DNA of 17,903 bases. Origin: Pseudomonadota bacterium (lineage in GTDB: Archaea > Thermoplasmatota > SW-10-69-26 > JACQPN01 > JAJPHT01). Below the pieces are notes generated by a model. That model had not been told where the DNA came from, ran no database searches, and saw only the letters and a list, made by a program, of their open reading frames with translations. This document shows positions 1-11,291 of the stretch, one piece after another. The DNA lies in the NCBI GenBank assembly GCA_021325135.1, contig JAJPHT010000035.1, positions 1-17,903 of the forward strand, in the 5' to 3' direction. The first letter of the stretch is position 1. Every line of letters starts with the position of its first letter. Position numbers and translations under genes: made by a program.

Positions 1-377
1 AACTCCATGGCGCGCGGCACGCAGTAGTTCTCGTGGCTGCCGTAGGAGACGCCGTCGGGGTCCGTGTTGTTCTTGAACGCGCTGACCTTGACGTTGTGGA
101 ACTCCTCCAGCTTCATGCGGGCGAGGTCCACGATGCGCTCGCCCGCCTTCTCGTAGATGAGCATCTCGCGGGCGTTGAGCGTCTCGGGCGTGCTGATCTC
201 TAGGTGGCCCACGTCGAAGTAGGCGCGGCTGCCGTTCTTGAGCCACTCGCCCTGCGCGGCGAACTGCGACTTGCGGATCACTTCCAGGGCGAGCCGGTGC
301 GGGTCGATGCCGCGCGGGTTCATCTGGTGCGAGAAGAGGGTGTACTCGTGCTCGCTGCCCATGATGCGGGGCTTCAC
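1..377 (-). CDS. PafA/Dop family (Pup ligase/deamidase, carboxylate-amine ligase fold) protein; 5' part only, runs off the left edge
   Basis: Manual translation from GTG at 377: MKPRIMGSEHEYTLFSHQMNPRGIDPHRLALEVIRKSQFAAQGEWLKNGSRAYFDVGHLEISTPETLNAREMLIYEKAGERIVDLARMKLEEFHNVKVSAFKNNTDPDGVSYGSHENYCVPRAME. It matches the PafA/Dop motifs RIMGxExE, LxNGxRxYxD, H-x-E-x-S/T-x-E, KAGE, KNNxD and SYGxHENY. An AT-rich TATA-like tract lies at 402-413. Confidence 0.92.
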   Translation of the reverse strand, partial: MKPRIMGSEHEYTLFSHQMNPRGIDPHRLALEVIRKSQFAAQGEWLKNGSRAYFDVGHLEISTPETLNAREMLIYEKAGERIVDLARMKLEEFHNVKVSAFKNNTDPDGVSYGSHENYCVPRAME

Positions 378-464
378 GCACTCGCCAGGTGGCGGGCAGA
401 CTATTTCCCTTTTGCGAGAAGCGAGGCCGCTCCCTTCATGCGGGGCGCGGCATTTCCGCCGGGC

Positions 465-1073
465 GTGGGCGCCGAGGTCACCTGCACGGCGGAGCACGCC
501 GGCGAGCGCGGCGAGGGCAAGGCCATGCTGGAGGGGGACAAGCTCCTCTTCCGCGGGCCCTTCCGCGTCGCCATCCCGCTGGCGCAGGCCAAGGTCCGCG
601 TCGAGGGCGATGCCCTCGTGGCGGACTGGCCAGGCGGCCGCGCGTCGTTCCTGCTGGGGGCCAAGCGCGCGGCGGCGTGGGCGGAGAAGATCCTCCACCC
701 GCCGACGCGCCTCGACAAGGCGGGCGTCAAGGCGGGCACGCGCGTCTCCCTCGTGGGCCTCACGGAGAAGGGCTTCGCCGCGGAGCTTCGCGCGGCGGGG
801 GCGAAGGTCGTGCGCGCGGAGGCGGACGTGACCTTCGCGCAGATCGACGATCCCAAGGACCTGGGAGGCATCGCGAAGCTCGCCAAGGGGCTGCCCGCCG
901 AGGGCGCGCTGTGGGTCCTCTCCCCGCGCGGGCGGCCGGAGATCGCGGACACCGTGGTCATGGCGGCCGCGCGGAAGGCGGGCCTCGTGGACACCAAGGT
1001 CATGCGCTTCTCGGAGACGCACACGGCGCTGAAGCTCGTCTGGCCGCGCGAGGCGCGCGCGAAGAAGCCTTAA
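465..1073 (+). CDS. DUF3052-like domain protein with N-terminal extension
   Basis: Likely start is GTG 465 (MGAEVTCTA...), because the track extension to 204 overlaps the pafA/dop gene. The C-terminal half has LDKAGVKAG...GALWVLSPRG...AARKAGLVDTKVMRFSETHTALKLV, resembling DUF3052. Confidence 0.65.
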   Translation: MGAEVTCTAEHAGERGEGKAMLEGDKLLFRGPFRVAIPLAQAKVRVEGDALVADWPGGRASFLLGAKRAAAWAEKILHPPTRLDKAGVKAGTRVSLVGLTEKGFAAELRAAGAKVVRAEADVTFAQIDDPKDLGGIAKLAKGLPAEGALWVLSPRGRPEIADTVVMAAARKAGLVDTKVMRFSETHTALKLVWPREARAKKP

Positions 1074-1097
1074 GTCCCGGCCGACCGAAGGCATGGC

Positions 1098-1625
1098 GTG
1101 GACAATCTTGTCGCCGCCGAGCTGGACGGCGCGCGCGACTACACCGCGCTCTTCCGGCTGGTGAAGCGCCTCGTGGAGGCGCGCCTGCGCAAGTCGCGCG
1201 CCGGCATCATGCTGGGTCTGGCGCCCCTGGGCCTCTCGCCCGAGGGCTTCCTGGGCGGCTACTTCGTCCTGGGCTCCAACGCCATGATCCTCAACAAGGA
1301 CGTGCTCAACTACGTGAAGGTCCACGAGCCCGCGCACCACAACGCCTACGCGTTCCACGTCCTCCTCCACGAGTACCTCCACACGCTGGGCTACTTCCGC
1401 GAGGACGAGGTGCGCCCCATGGCCTACGACATCTCCCGCGACGCGCTGGGGCCTGAGCACCCCGCGACGCTCATCGCCGCCGCCATGGTGCCCGGCATGG
1501 AGGGCGAGGCGCCCGCGTTCTTCCGCAAGCTGGTGTACCCGCAGTTCGGCTGGGCCCCCGCGCGCCGGCCCGCCATCGAGATCGTCAAGGGGTTCGACCC
1601 CGACGCGACGCCTTACATCGGATGA
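1098..1625 (+). CDS. Hypothetical HExxH (zincin-like) metallopeptidase-type protein
   Basis: 175 aa containing HVLLHEYLHTLGYFREDEVR, with typical codon usage. TTAAG box at 1070-1074. Confidence 0.7.
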   Translation: MDNLVAAELDGARDYTALFRLVKRLVEARLRKSRAGIMLGLAPLGLSPEGFLGGYFVLGSNAMILNKDVLNYVKVHEPAHHNAYAFHVLLHEYLHTLGYFREDEVRPMAYDISRDALGPEHPATLIAAAMVPGMEGEAPAFFRKLVYPQFGWAPARRPAIEIVKGFDPDATPYIG

Positions 1626-1676
1626 CCATTCTCGGACTCGCGCGCCCAATCCTGGCTCATCCTCGTCGGAACGCCT

Positions 1677-1922
1677 ATGGCCGCGTCGGGCGCTTTCCGG
1701 CGCGTGAAGACGCTCAGCTTCCCGCTGGCCGTGCTCGACGCCGCGAACGTCGAGGACCTGCTGGACCTCGTGACCTCCATGGACGGCGTGGTGGCCGCAC
1801 TGGTGGAGCGCGACGCGCCCGGCCTCCAGGTCCTCGTGCGCAGCGACCACAGCGCGCTCCTCGTGCGCGAAGGCCTGCGCTCCGCGCTGGCGGCCGGCTG
1901 GGCCGGCGCGGCGCACGCCTGA
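1677..1922 (+). CDS. Small hypothetical protein (81 aa)
   Basis: ATG-started ORF with plausible codon usage filling the gap between two + strand genes; no recognisable motif. Confidence 0.5.
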   Translation: MAASGAFRRVKTLSFPLAVLDAANVEDLLDLVTSMDGVVAALVERDAPGLQVLVRSDHSALLVREGLRSALAAGWAGAAHA

Positions 1923-4186: not shown

Positions 4187-4633
4187 TCAGCCGGAGTCGA
4201 CCTCGGCGTCGTCGTCGCAGACGTCGTGGTCGTAGACGCCCAGCAGGATGGACTGCCCGACCACGGGGAGCGGGTGGCTCGCGCCGTCGTAGCAGACCTC
4301 GGCGCCGCCGACGCCCGCCACGAAGGCGTGGACCTCGAGGTGGTCGTCACCGGGGGCGGTGCAGGCGTTGCCGCCGGGGATGCCCTTGGGGTCGTTGAGG
4401 AACGCCAGCAGGGCCGCGGCGGCGCCGGAGCCCGTGGGGTTCGTGGGGTCGCTGGGGAGGACGGTGTTGTAGACGGTGCCGTCCTCGACCTCGACCTCAG
4501 CCTCGCCGCCGGTGCCGTCGAGGTCGTAGCACTCGCCGCTGATGCCCGCGTCGACGGGGTCGGGCTGGGCCGCGTGGGCATAGGCCGGGATCAGGAGAAA
4601 GGCCGCTAGCAGATACAGGATGCGGAGCTTCAT
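4187..4633 (-). CDS. Secreted acidic hypothetical protein with 4 Cys
   Basis: ATG 4633 gives the signal peptide MKLRILYLLAAFLLIPAYAHA; the mature part is Asp/Gly-rich with four Cys. Confidence 0.7.
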   Translation of the reverse strand: MKLRILYLLAAFLLIPAYAHAAQPDPVDAGISGECYDLDGTGGEAEVEVEDGTVYNTVLPSDPTNPTGSGAAAALLAFLNDPKGIPGGNACTAPGDDHLEVHAFVAGVGGAEVCYDGASHPLPVVGQSILLGVYDHDVCDDDAEVDSG

Positions 4634-4736
4634 GGGTGGTTCCCCGCGCCGGCCAGGCCCGCGGGGAAGGATATCATTGTTGGAGATCGGATGTGAAATC
4701 GCACGAAGCCCCGCCTCAGATAACGGATTGATCCAC

Positions 4737-4798
4737 AAAAAGAGGGCATCCGAGAAGGAAAAGGGGGCGCGCGGGCGCGGCGCGGGGCCGCGCCCGTG
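4737..4798 (-). terminator. Possible terminator downstream of arc
   Basis: GC hairpin CGGGCGCGGC/GCCGCGCCCG (about 4772-4796), followed on the minus strand by CCCCCTTTTCC and CTCTTTTTG pyrimidine/T tracts. Confidence 0.4.
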
Positions 4799-4809
4799 AC
4801 GATCCGGTT

Positions 4810-5013
4810 CTCACATCACTTCGACGTTGTCGTTCGCTGCAAACCGCGCGCGCTCCCACGGCCGAAGCCTCTCCTCGCGGCCTGAAGGCCGCTCGTCGGG
4901 ATCGGCCTGGTCGCACGCGCGATTTGCGCTGCACGCCAACGTCGAAGTCAAGTTCGGCCTTCGGCCTCACATGACTTCGACGTTGTCGTTCGCTGCAAAC
5001 CGCGCGCGCTCCC
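4810..5013. repeat. Direct and inverted copies of the arc 3' end
   Basis: 4810-4857 matches 4966-5013 at 47/48. 4913-4950 is an inverted copy (31/38). Small hairpins lie at 4877-4892 and 4956-4966. Confidence 0.92.
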
Positions 5014-6499
5014 GCTGCCGCTTCTGGTACACGGACGACTCGACGAGGGCGTGCTCCTTGGACTCCTCCTCGGCGGCCTTGCGCAGGTCCTCGAAGTTGA
5101 GGCCTTCGCGGGCGCGCTCGTGAGAGCCGCGCGGATAGGGCAGCACGCGCTTCACGTAGTTCTTCTTCGCGGTGGTGATGATGCTCTCGATGAGGGCGCC
5201 GGAGATGATGTCCTTGCGCTTGATGGTCTTCACGGACTCCTTGGCCTCGGGGTCCAGCTTGAACTCGACCCACTTGTTGTCGCCGTAGAGCTCCTCGATG
5301 AGCATGCTCTTCATCGTCTCCAGGGCCTTCTCCTTGGAGCCGCCGTTGTCGCGCACGAACGTCTCCTGGAGGGGCAGGTCCTTGGTGAGGTAGATGTCGA
5401 TGATCTGCATCGCGGCCTGCTTGTTGGGACGCTGGATCTCGATGACCTCGTCGAAGCGGCCCGGGCGCAGCAGCGCGGGGTCGATCATGTCGGGGCGGTT
5501 CGTGGCGCCGAGGATGTAGACGTCCTTCAGCGTGTCGATGCCGTCCATCTCCGAGAGGATCTGCGCGATGATGTTCTTCTGGACGCCTGCGCTGTCCTGC
5601 TGGCCGCGCGTCGTGCCCAGCGCGTCGAACTCGTCGAAGAAGATGATGCTGGGCGCGTTCTCGCGCGCCTTGCGGAAGAGCGCCTTGATCATGTTCTCGG
5701 ACTCGCCCACCCACTTGGAGAGGATGTCGGCCACCTTGACGTTGAAGAACGTCATGTCGTTCTCGGTGGCGACGGCCTTGCCGATGAGCGTCTTGCCGCA
5801 GCCGGGCGGGCCGTAGAGGAGGACGCCCTTGGGCGCCTTCAGCTTGATCGCGGCGAAAAGCTCGGGCTCCTTGTAGGGAAGCTCGACCACGTCGCGGATG
5901 CGGTCCAGCGTCTCGTCCAGGCCGCCGATCTGCGCGTACTTCACGTTGGGCGTCTCGCCCAGGAAGAGGTCGCGGATCTCGCTGCTGGGGCGCACCTCCA
6001 GGATGTCCAGCGTGGGCGGCAGGAGGCTGACCTCGTAGCCGATCTTGATCTCGTCGCCCATGCCCGAGGGCAGGTCGATGATCTTCTTCTCCATGCCGTC
6101 GGAGGTGGTGATGACGAGCTTGTCCTGGTAGATGTCGACGACCTTGCCCACGACGCCCTGCTCGTACTGGCGCGTGGAGGCGATGATGGCGTAGGTCTTG
6201 GGGTGGAGCCAGACGTACTGGCCCGTGCGGAGGTCGGACTTCGCGACCTGGCCCACGGCGACCTTGAGCACCTGCGTGCCGTGGCTGACGACGACTTCCT
6301 GGGGCTCCAGGTCGGCGCCTGTCAAGCGCAGGACGTATGCCGAGAGGAGCGGCGGCTCCTTGATCTGGTTGAACTTCTCCTCGTAGGCCTTGACGATGGC
6401 CTGGAGCTCGGCGATCTGCTCCTCCTTGCTGGGCGCGTCGCCGGCGTCGGCGCCGCGCGGGGCGCGGCCGCGCTTCTCCATGTCCCGGTCGTCCTTCAT
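4967..6499 (-). CDS. arc: ARC/Mpa-type proteasome-associated AAA+ ATPase
   Basis: N-terminal coiled coil ending in KEPP, then a beta-rich (OB-like) interdomain. Also present: YAQIGGL...IRDVVELP, Walker A GPPGCGKT, Walker B IFFDEFD, and SRH ATNRPDMIDPALLRPGRFD. The C-terminal region (YLTKDLPL...LYGDNKWVE...KDIISGALIESIITTAKK...GLNFEDL) follows actinobacterial Mpa/ARC rather than PAN. Confidence 0.85.
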   Translation of the reverse strand: MKDDRDMEKRGRAPRGADAGDAPSKEEQIAELQAIVKAYEEKFNQIKEPPLLSAYVLRLTGADLEPQEVVVSHGTQVLKVAVGQVAKSDLRTGQYVWLHPKTYAIIASTRQYEQGVVGKVVDIYQDKLVITTSDGMEKKIIDLPSGMGDEIKIGYEVSLLPPTLDILEVRPSSEIRDLFLGETPNVKYAQIGGLDETLDRIRDVVELPYKEPELFAAIKLKAPKGVLLYGPPGCGKTLIGKAVATENDMTFFNVKVADILSKWVGESENMIKALFRKARENAPSIIFFDEFDALGTTRGQQDSAGVQKNIIAQILSEMDGIDTLKDVYILGATNRPDMIDPALLRPGRFDEVIEIQRPNKQAAMQIIDIYLTKDLPLQETFVRDNGGSKEKALETMKSMLIEELYGDNKWVEFKLDPEAKESVKTIKRKDIISGALIESIITTAKKNYVKRVLPYPRGSHERAREGLNFEDLRKAAEEESKEHALVESSVYQKRQRERARFAANDNVEVM

Positions 6500-9680: not shown

Positions 9681-9776
9681 GGCGGGCGACCCCGGGGCCG
9701 TCTGCCGATGCGATATATCGCCTTGTCGGGCCGCCGGGGCGCGCCCGGCCTCCGCGATGCCCCAGGGTGGCCCAGC

Positions 9777-9785
9777 TTTTTTATA
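9777..9785 (+). promoter_or_regulatory. TATA box for lpdA
   Basis: TTTTTTATA about 30 nt upstream of ATG 9815 in otherwise very GC-rich DNA. Confidence 0.65.
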
Positions 9786-9814
9786 GCCCCTCCCTGTCCC
9801 GAGTTGGAGTCCCC

Positions 9815-11224
9815 ATGGCCACCACGATGAGCACCGAGGTCCTCGTGATCGGAGCGGGCCCTGGAGGGTACGTCGCCGCCATCCGCGCCGCGCAGCTGGG
9901 CAAGAAGGTCCTCTGCGTCGAGAAGGAGAAGCTGGGCGGCGTGTGCCTCAACGTGGGCTGCATCCCCAGCAAGGCGCTCATCCACGCGGCGAAGGAGTGG
10001 CGCACGCTGCACACGGAGGCCGCCGAGATCGGCATCGAGGTGCAGGGCGCGCGGCTGGACTTCAAGAAGACGCAGGAGTGGAAGCGCGGCGTCACCACCG
10101 GCCTCACCAACGGCATCGGCCAGCTCTTCAAGGCCAACAAGGTGGACTCCCTCTTCGGGACCGCGACGTTCACCGGGCCCAACGCGGTCTCCGTGAAGAC
10201 CGCCAGCGGCGACGTCTCCGTCACGTTCCAGCACTGCATCGTGGCCACCGGCAGCCGGCCCATCCAGATCCCGGGCTTCGCCTTCGATGGCCAGAAGGTC
10301 GTCGACAGCACGGGCGCCCTGGACTTCGAGACGGTGCCCCGCGAGCTGGTCGTCATCGGCGGCGGCTTCATCGGCCTGGAGATCGGCGCCGCCTACGCCG
10401 CGCTGGGCAGCAAGGTCACGGTCGTCGAGATGATGGACCAGATCCTCCCCGGCCAGGACGCCGAGATCGTCCGCATCGTCGAGCGCCGCCTCAAGAAGGA
10501 CGACGTCGCGGTCTTCACCAAGGCCAAGGCGAAGGCGTTCGGCGGCTCGCACGTCACCATCGAGGTGGACGGCAAGGAGCAGGCCATCGCCGCGGACAAG
10601 GTCCTCGTGGCCGTGGGCCGCCGACCCAACACCGACTCGCTGGCGCTGGACAAGGCCGGCGTCAAGGTGGGCGAGAAGGGGCTCATCCCCATCAACGACA
10701 AGGCGCAGACCAACGTGCCCCACATCTACGCCATCGGCGACATCACCGCCGGCCCCGCCCTCGCGCACAAGGCCAGCAGGGAGGGCCTCGTCGCGGCGGC
10801 GCACCTCGCGGGCGACAAGGGCGCGGCGCTGGACTACAAGGCGCTCCCGTGGGCCGTCTTCGTCGAGCCCGAGATCGCCACCGTGGGCCTGACCGAGGAG
10901 CAGGCGAAGGCCAAGGGCTTCGACCCCGTCGTCGCCAAGTTCCCCTACGCTGCGCTGGGCCGCGCCAAGAGCACCAACGCCACCGAGGGCTTCGTGAAGA
11001 TCGTCGCGGACAAGAAGACCGATCTCCTCCTGGGCGTCCACGTCGTGGGAGCCGAGGCCTCGAACATCATCGCCGAAGCGGCCCTCGCCATCGAGATGGG
11101 CGCCACCGCCAAGGACCTCGCGCTGACCATCCACACGCACCCCACGTTCCCCGAGGCCATCATGGAGGCCGCGGAGGGCGTGCACGGGAAGATGATCCAC
11201 GCGGCGAACCGCGGAACGAAGTAA
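9815..11224 (+). CDS. lpdA: Dihydrolipoyl dehydrogenase (E3)
   Basis: GAGPGGYVAA FAD motif, redox disulfide GGVCLNVGCIPSK, ATGS, GGGFIGLE, YAIGD, LAHKAS, and C-terminal HPTFPE. Confidence 0.96.
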   Translation: MATTMSTEVLVIGAGPGGYVAAIRAAQLGKKVLCVEKEKLGGVCLNVGCIPSKALIHAAKEWRTLHTEAAEIGIEVQGARLDFKKTQEWKRGVTTGLTNGIGQLFKANKVDSLFGTATFTGPNAVSVKTASGDVSVTFQHCIVATGSRPIQIPGFAFDGQKVVDSTGALDFETVPRELVVIGGGFIGLEIGAAYAALGSKVTVVEMMDQILPGQDAEIVRIVERRLKKDDVAVFTKAKAKAFGGSHVTIEVDGKEQAIAADKVLVAVGRRPNTDSLALDKAGVKVGEKGLIPINDKAQTNVPHIYAIGDITAGPALAHKASREGLVAAAHLAGDKGAALDYKALPWAVFVEPEIATVGLTEEQAKAKGFDPVVAKFPYAALGRAKSTNATEGFVKIVADKKTDLLLGVHVVGAEASNIIAEAALAIEMGATAKDLALTIHTHPTFPEAIMEAAEGVHGKMIHAANRGTK

Positions 11225-11291
11225 CGCGGTGAGCCGCGTGGAGCACGCGACGCCTCCGCAGAGGCGGCGCTGGTGATCCACGCGACGAACC
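11193..11291. repeat. Direct and inverted copies of the lpdA 3' end
   Basis: 11193-11213 has an inverted copy at 11225-11245 (18/21) and a direct copy at 11274-11291 (17/18). Hairpin CGCCTC-CGCA-GAGGCG at 11251-11266. Confidence 0.8.

Follow-up and report, generated by a model that had tools for sequence, protein, structure and literature searches.

Why should the 3' end of a proteasome ATPase gene stand three times in succession, twice forwards and once backwards, in the genome of an uncultured member of the Thermoplasmatota? The question is raised by a stretch of DNA of 17,903 nucleotides (hereafter the window), which constitutes contig C18 of a MAG of 51 contigs, 3.77 Mb and 72% G+C (hereafter G000). 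From the letters of the window alone, two readings had been put forward in the original prediction, namely a translation-coupled 3' switch or stabiliser for the gene, or the scar of a fold-back template-switch duplication. Here, the locus is considered together with the remainder of G000 and with orthologous loci in five relatives, i.e., the congeners G001, G002 and G003 (uncultured Thermoplasmatota), G004, and G006, which belongs to another genus.

The gene, referred to as arc, encodes an intact protein with an AAA domain recognised by profile (PF00004, E 1.7e-42), whose best NCBIfam match is the proteasome ATPase TIGR03689 (E 2.7e-107, below the cut-off); the ..VEVM tail with which the protein ends is also the C-terminal end of the orthologues in the 5 relatives. 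With arc encoded on the minus strand, it is the copy with the higher coordinates that forms the true gene end, the "downstream" copy being the one with the lower coordinates (Table 1).

Table 1. Coordinates of the features of the window, with those of the second dispersed hairpin family elsewhere in G000; the parts of the arc 3' end are listed in mRNA sense.
Feature	Positions	Strand	Remarks
arc-like proteasome AAA ATPase gene	6499..4967	-	510 aa, intact; stop TGA 4969-4967
A(up), gene-attached target copy	5013..4966	-	last 15 codons of arc, stop and 1 nt
H1, mini-hairpin GGCC-GAA-GGCC (4956-4966), then GAA	4966..4954	-	right after the stop; apex of the A(up)/A' palindrome
A', degenerate gene-end copy, inverted	4953..4908	-	complementarity 76% to the downstream copy, 79% to the gene end (46-47 nt compared)
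Core, structured hairpin repeat	4907..4860	-	48 nt; exact centre of the A'/A(down) palindrome
A(down), direct gene-end copy, displaced	4857..4810	-	47/48; non-coding; native 3' flank beyond
GC-rich inverted repeat with two oligo-T tracts	4732..4800	-	mRNA sense: TTTT ~4759-4762, TTTTT ~4736-4740
PafA/Dop-like ligase fragment	1-1916	-	TIGR03688/03686, E ~1e-20, far below the cut-off
Second instance, 3' end of the pyridine-nucleotide-disulphide oxidoreductase gene (9767-11224)	11194..11291	+	
A(up) of the second instance	11194-11210	+	
Stop TAA of the second instance	11222-11224	+	
A' of the second instance	11225-11242	+	18 nt, just past TAA
GC hairpin of the second instance	~11247-11271	+	
A(down) of the second instance	11275-11291	+	17 nt, 16/17
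Family-2 locus	C34:15057-15131		
Family-2 locus	C12:109473-109517		
Family-2 locus	C12:112163-112238		
Family-2 locus	C12:16065		
Family-2 locus	C33:117038		
Family-2 locus	C40:135349		
Family-2 locus	C6:17937		

Read in the sense of the mRNA, the 3' end of arc is composed of (i) the gene-attached copy, A(up), (ii) a mini-hairpin, H1, (iii) an inverted copy, A', (iv) a structured hairpin, hereafter the core, and (v) a displaced direct copy, A(down), beyond which lies the native flank. The parts listed in the original prediction are all there: the last 48 nt of arc recur 156 nt away, i.e., at a distance of 52 codons with the frame open between both TGA codons, their sole difference is synonymous (GTC/GTG, Val), a degenerate inverted copy lies between them, and GGCC-stemmed mini-hairpins are found both in H1 and inside the core. 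The gene-end repeat is confirmed as real and far beyond chance, the longest exact direct run at a spacing of 40-260 nt reaching 40 nt in the window, whereas 20 shuffles of it yield runs of 11-15 nt. Folding, proposed from the outset as a check, revealed that the 204-nt stretch from one direct copy to the other is far more stable as RNA than its shuffles (-119 kcal/mol, z = -8.3, 0/200 shuffles); as DNA, it reaches -68 kcal/mol (z = -7.2). Both of the mutually exclusive pairings envisaged for the inverted copy also hold, as the gene end with the inverted copy (-75.9 kcal/mol) and the inverted copy with the core and the second copy (-95.4 kcal/mol) each yield a stable long hairpin when folded alone.

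What the original prediction had missed is that the spacer hairpin is a conserved dispersed repeat. Core copies were found by similarity search of G000, and then by pattern search and covariance model; the first search of G000 with the arc region returned 5 further copies of the 50-nt spacer, and the total amounts to 13, namely 8 in G000, among which one is shortened to a "mini-core", plus 4 in G002 and a single one in G003, the genes of these core-bearing genomes being only 85-92% identical to one another. The strict core pattern has 0 copies in the other 18 genomes of the class, the matches in other genera are only weak and doubtful and, among the matches listed for metagenome and genome collections, only the known G003 copy is real, the others being due to chance. 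With the spacer dispersed at many loci, a single isolated slippage during replication cannot fully account for the arc locus.

Structurally, the core exhibits an outer stem of 6-7 bp (GGCCGA/TCGGCC), two conserved and purine-rich strands, CCCGACGAG and GAGGAGAGG, whose alignment yields tandem GA/GA mismatches, and an inner hairpin, the stem of which varies in sequence among copies but always pairs, with compensatory changes. In a model-fitted alignment of the 13 copies, 98.4% of the cells are paired and 5 pairs show double changes, which 0/500 shuffles match. Two subtypes can be discriminated, i.e., GAT..CTTC and GAA..AATTC, both of them being represented in G000 as well as in G002, where they occupy loci that are not orthologous. 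A search of G000 for single core ends, left or right, outside the compact cores found none, which argues against a longer parent element as far as this incomplete MAG goes. The window has no match in Rfam at gathering score, nor at permissive thresholds, and the long arc hairpin retrieves only a sub-threshold look-alike of a miRNA precursor. Some known motifs were rejected by eye, namely the bulge-helix-bulge intron (a 4-bp helix bordered by 3-nt bulges is lacking), the K-turn (tandem GA pairs but no 3-nt bulge) as well as C/D-box RNA and the hammerhead (their core motifs are absent). At many loci (window 4956-4966; C23 and C12:34722 in G000; C45 in G002), the small hairpin loops exhibit a C-GAA-G closure or GCGAAGC, which we take to be the very stable DNA mini-hairpin sequence described by Hirao and colleagues. 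Loops of this type hint at single-stranded DNA, and not RNA alone, as the relevant folded form.

The layout encountered at arc is recurrent. In 11 of the 13 core copies, a local sequence A is followed by a short loop or hairpin, the inverted A', GA, the core, GAA and the direct copy of A; at G002 C15 and G002 C68, nested palindromes precede the core, with a direct copy that is short or unresolved. Each core copy has its own local A, with direct copies of 6-48 nt (6, 15, 15, 17, 19, 21, 24, 36, and 48 nt) and inverted copies of 8-44 nt. The stop codon or the tRNA 3' end constitutes the apex of the A(up)/A' palindrome and the core the centre of the A'/A(down) palindrome; modules comparable to H1, i.e., a GC hairpin and GAA, occupy the equivalent place in other core copies. 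The core is co-oriented with the targeted gene in at least 10 of the 13 copies. Besides the proteasome ATPase of the window, the targets comprise (i) the 3' ends of three tRNA genes, namely tRNA-Met(CAT), tRNA-Ile(GAT) and tRNA-Val(CAC), where the direct copy starts in the T-loop and matches at 36/36, 15/15 and 17/17, respectively, (ii) the 3' ends of protein-coding genes, namely a thermosome-family chaperonin (15/15), the acidic ribosomal stalk protein (~22/24), a thiolase (19/22), a DRG-type GTPase (inverted copy 43/44, direct copy ~70%), a GatE-like protein and a small Cys-rich protein, and (iii) the ATGA stop/start junction before hom (20/21). At this last locus (G000 C15:211947-212040), the core sits at the junction of an ACT-domain gene with hom and leaves a mini-ORF of 30 codons with a stop/start overlap at both ends.

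Comparison with the orthologous locus in relatives, likewise proposed as a check, could be carried out and yielded no conserved structure at arc: the duplication is missing from G001 and G003, G002 exhibits a different and smaller form (19-nt direct copy, 12-nt inverted copy, 21-nt plain hairpin), and the contigs of G004 and G006 end just behind their arc orthologue. At the thiolase, 5/5 relatives have an empty site. The GTPase site is empty in four, and G004 there possesses a 57-nt near-perfect duplication with other hairpins and without the core. The canonical core was present in G002 at 0/5 of the orthologous G000 sites checked; most of the orthologous sites checked in congeners are without a core and none has the canonical 48-nt form. 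Occupancy of the core sites is shown by these comparisons to be lineage-specific. Two further loci are shared more broadly. At C12:34722, an insertion with an identical right junction is common to G000, G002 and G004 with three different hairpins, the attached copy growing AT-richer stepwise across the three species (0, 1 and 2 changes) and the whole unit being tandemly repeated in G004. At the end of the stalk-protein gene (C23 in G000), a stop-spanning hairpin is found in all genomes examined (G000, G002, G001, G004, G003, and G006) and the arms of the palindrome track the synonymous codons proper to each species (five genomes); in G006, this gene end exhibits the full A/A'/hairpin/A triplication, with a hairpin unrelated to the core.

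The process also appears at loci devoid of the core. When G000 was scanned for direct repeats whose spacer contains an inverted copy, additional loci of this layout emerged, with hairpins that are unique or miniature, including a second instance in the window itself, at the end of the oxidoreductase gene (Table 1), whose GC hairpin has no other occurrence in G000. A second dispersed hairpin family of ~75 nt (family 2, the core being family 1) is present at 7 loci in G000 and at least 10 in G002. Direct target duplications flank 7/7 of the G000 loci (18, 32, 35, 52, 65, 82, and 94 nt), spanning tRNA 3' parts or the last codons and the stop, and a clear inverted copy is absent; the duplication starts in the anticodon loop at tRNA-Ser and in the T-loop at one other tRNA. 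At G004:C56 and G003:C121, the whole unit forms tandem concatemers (A-hairpin-A'-hairpin repeated, or A-core-A-core), which look like the outcome of rolling or slipped copying of the unit. Stop-spanning hairpins with a score of at least 12 occur at 21 of the 2,858 gene ends of G000, against 2 at each of two internal controls; half of these 21 ends belong to another repeat family and about 10-20 ends carry the layout. A general design of the gene ends of G000 was rejected on these counts and, being enriched yet rare, stop-spanning hairpins point to sporadic insertion. G000 also harbours two other abundant families of long palindromes (e.g., C11:16987, C49:64188 and C2:41623), one of ~93 copies with GGGGCGCAGCCCCCTGACGT in the arms and one of ~30 copies with GGGTCCAAAGAACGCGA at the ends.

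The arc triplication is, as such, one of about twenty small hairpin insertions in G000, in which gene ends were copied forwards and usually backwards too; the chances appear balanced that it corresponds, more precisely, to a single insertion of a small repeat that carries no gene, forms hairpins and is specific to the archaeal genus in question.

The two direct copies at a locus are not interchangeable. Differences between attached and displaced copies are mostly synonymous and at third positions (C18, C12:34722, C23, C15, C33, C17 and C12:109473 in G000), the pairs seen being, besides the GTC/GTG of arc, TAT/TAC with GGC/GGG, GCT/GCG, CTC/CTG, GTCAGC/GTGTCC, and AAA/AAG with GAA/GAG. The attached copy tends to A/T and old displaced copies to G/C, including a change from TGA to TGG on two occasions; the second instance in the window and the stalk-protein locus of G006 are exceptions to this trend. 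It is the displaced copy that looks native at C12:109473 and at the stalk-protein locus. The inverted copy always agrees with the attached copy.

Among the processes able to generate such an anatomy, a replicative template switch combined with a spreading hairpin module is favoured here and, judging from the order of the parts, would have roughly an even chance of being correct. The layout would be made by copying and not by cut-and-paste: (i) DNA synthesis would arrive at the gene end, (ii) it would fold back, the gene end being copied in reverse, (iii) the hairpin module would be picked up, and (iv) synthesis would resume at the start of the gene end, i.e., by a template switch returning upstream of its departure point. 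Later switches would re-homogenise the palindromes. The gene-attached copy would preserve the ORF, the second copy would be a displaced non-coding remnant in the 3' untranslated region, and the stable alternative RNA or DNA hairpins would be a consequence of the insertion and not a device evolved for arc.

Of the two readings in the original prediction, the fold-back scar is the closer one: the direct/inverted/direct order fits, but the shared core is left unexplained. The A/A'/A order, seen in 11/13 core copies and at several coreless loci, agrees with the four-point model, and the process is broader than the core in view of the unique-hairpin loci, family 2 and the concatemers. The tracking of species-specific codons by the arms at the stalk-protein locus is the pattern expected of recurrent arm-to-arm switching (PMC8794818, PMC13100816). 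In G000-G004, MAGs of 86-99% completeness in which a partner enzyme could be missed, the RVT_1 profile is absent, as are Cas1 (PF01867) and the Y1 transposase (PF01797), the latter being detected in 6 control genomes; the lack of a reverse transcriptase, of Cas1, of a Y1 transposase and of a long parent element fits a host-driven process.

Several observations sit less well with template switching. In its pure form it adds no foreign sequence, whereas the core and H1 at the junctions are not local; since the same 48-nt core is found at 13 loci, something must move or copy it between loci, and the GA...GAA-flanked hairpin modules at both junctions are not accounted for. A simple in-place duplication does not predict displaced copies that look native and attached copies that are AT-richer. 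The duplications in tRNA genes have their starts in the T-loop or anticodon loop, like the att sites of integrases, and the co-orientation of the core with its target hints at a transcription- or RNA-linked step, or at a function.

Some of these difficulties would be resolved by a miniature integrative element, an account which nonetheless strikes us as unlikely, if quite conceivable. The mobile unit would then be A-H1-A'-core, in the form of a single-stranded circle or dumbbell, whose A/A' stem would mimic a duplex target; this unit would recombine with the end of the gene on the chromosome, the gene would come to end in element-borne sequence and its native end would be displaced downstream. 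In phage CTX, a folded attP mimics dif and the integrated DNA contains, as at the present loci, an inverted copy of the site. By analogy, the A-loop-A'-cargo-A order may be the expected product of single-strand hairpin integration. The native-like displaced copy and the derived AT-richer attached copy, at the stalk-protein locus and at the family-2 locus C12:109473, would be accounted for, as would the agreement of A' with the attached copy. The starts in tRNA genes, in the T-loop (3/3 in family 1, 1 in family 2) or the anticodon loop (the tRNA-Ser of family 2), have a comparator in archaeal att duplications (PMC3293823). Against integration of this kind, two tiny families with about 20 targets would require a new A/A' pair at every target, with no acquisition route evident, there is no recombinase gene in or beside the ~108-nt inserts, family 2 is without a clear inverted copy, and the stepwise AT gain at C12:34722 looks like change after insertion and not like import.

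A third explanation, improbable in our view, is that the structure has been selected as RNA, i.e., as a 3' untranslated-region stabiliser, a terminator aid or a translation-coupled switch for housekeeping mRNAs, that of arc among them. The extreme stability of the alternative hairpins speaks for it, together with the co-orientation of the core in at least 10/13 copies, core loops and tandem GA motifs typical of structured RNA, the stop-spanning hairpins of the stalk-protein gene, kept with compensating arms in five genomes, and the housekeeping nature of the targets (thermosome, stalk protein, proteasome ATPase, GatE-like protein, GTPase and tRNAs). The switch or stabiliser that the original prediction had proposed for arc nevertheless finds no confirmation. 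An arc-specific device is contradicted by the lack of conservation of the structure at this gene (absent from G001 and G003, different in G002), and the layout also lies behind tRNA genes, between a stop and a start codon and at about 10 other gene ends; only some 10-20 of ~2,860 gene ends carry it. Function would not explain the third, direct copy, and no Rfam family matches.

That the triplication is an artefact of assembly or of whole-genome amplification, in the form of chimeric inverted and direct joins, is very improbable: G000 is indeed a MAG in 51 contigs, and contigs of G004 and G006 do break just after the arc orthologue, but at least five MAGs, assembled independently of one another, show the core and the layout at many loci and with compensatory changes, and repeats of such a kind tend to collapse in assembly and not to expand. 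Programmed read-through or recoding, by which a longer isoform with 52 additional residues and the same C-terminal tail would arise, is hardly credible at all, for the 52-codon spacing, the frame open from TGA to TGA and the hairpin after the TGA are offset by the open frames expected by chance at 72% G+C, by spacings of 94, 97, 100 and 85 nt in other copies, in-frame spacing thus not being characteristic of the family, by tRNA targets that cannot be translated and by a peptide that is not conserved in relatives. Selenocysteine-like recoding was rejected with in-frame spacing at some loci only and with tRNAs among the targets. A diversity-generating retroelement was likewise rejected, the single difference being C/G and not adenine-specific and RVT_1 being absent from G000-G004, as was integration of the Cas1 type (casposon or CRISPR repeat duplication), PF01867 being absent from the same genomes and the duplications varying in length.

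The elements can be set beside several known systems, in the first instance REP/BIME and the MITEs of bacteria and archaea (PMC2229807, PMC3184786). Like them, they are short, gene-less and GC-rich palindromes, dispersed and of low to moderate copy number; their stems covary, their conserved ends are particular to each family and most of them are located at gene ends. Unlike REPs, which are mobilised by RAYT Y1 transposases, they are found in genomes (G000-G004) where no Y1 was detected. To our knowledge, target duplication is not a feature of REPs. Unlike MITEs, with their short target duplications of fixed length and their longer parent with the same ends, duplications here are variable (6-57 nt in family 1, the 57 nt being those of a coreless locus, and 18-94 nt in family 2), no such parent was found in G000, and family 1 possesses an inverted copy of the target besides the duplication.

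As for copying processes, a single template switch can generate a perfect inverted copy, with a direct duplication in addition if it returns upstream, and repeated switches homogenise and lengthen hairpin arms, resulting in apparently compensatory changes (PMC8794818, PMC10710096, PMC13100816). The described switches nevertheless copy local sequence only, whereas shared hairpin modules are present here at both switch points, and, unlike them, the insertions cluster at stop codons and tRNA 3' ends. Synthesis-dependent microhomology-mediated end joining leads to snap-back and loop-out junctions with inverted and direct copies of the flanks, primed at short hairpin-forming repeats (PMC2943611, PMC5728401); its known setting is the repair of breaks in eukaryotes, not in these archaea, and there the insertions are short and no shared module recurs. 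The duplications also resemble archaeal att duplications (PMC3293823) in that a 3' part is directly repeated, the proximal copy reconstitutes the gene and the native end is displaced, and resemble integrase att sites in that the boundaries in tRNA genes fall in the T-loop or anticodon loop. They differ from att systems by the mere ~50-110 nt between the repeats, the lack of an integrase, the ~20 targets and the lack of a common att core, the repeats differing completely between loci in family 1 and family 2 alike.

Taken in this context, the elements resemble small non-autonomous palindromic elements, and their mechanism has a genuine chance of being new. The insertion signature differs from every catalogued transposition chemistry known to us, and a search of the literature found no published description of such hairpin elements. 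More broadly, and as a doubtful though possible extension, they might represent an undescribed kind of prokaryotic mobile DNA, in which gene-less hairpin modules would insert at gene and tRNA ends without a dedicated transposase, a palindrome being built from the target via a dumbbell or single-strand intermediate or by programmed template switching, with the gene end regenerated and with long, variable, direct and inverted target copies, a process that may be widespread in Thermoplasmatota and perhaps beyond them in other archaea. If so, small palindromic repeats of archaea would spread with long variable target duplications and an inverted copy, aimed at stop codons and tRNA 3' ends, which would imply either an enzyme so far unrecognised or a pathway of host replication or repair that behaves like transposition. 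It would also account for duplicated gene ends and "tRNA fragments", commonly interpreted as scars of integration. At the level of single loci, it would illustrate a single-step origin for long perfect hairpins that overlap coding ends, and about twenty datable insertions in one genus provide a population for tests.

Returning to arc, the gene is intact and special regulation need not be assumed, even though the hairpins may incidentally affect the 3' stability of its mRNA. Scanning positions 4550-5100 for bacterial-type terminators revealed no terminator-like site, and the nearest oligo-T tracts lie 45-120 nt past the second copy, so that the hairpin is without the directly adjoining U tract of an intrinsic terminator; the GC-rich inverted repeat with its two oligo-T tracts, downstream of the whole element (Table 1), likely represents the archaeal termination region of arc. 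Independently of the repeat, the window also encodes a PafA/Dop-like ligase fragment on the same strand as the ARC-like proteasome ATPase, and the presence of both in a member of the Thermoplasmatota makes for an unusual home of Pup/UBact-type machinery.
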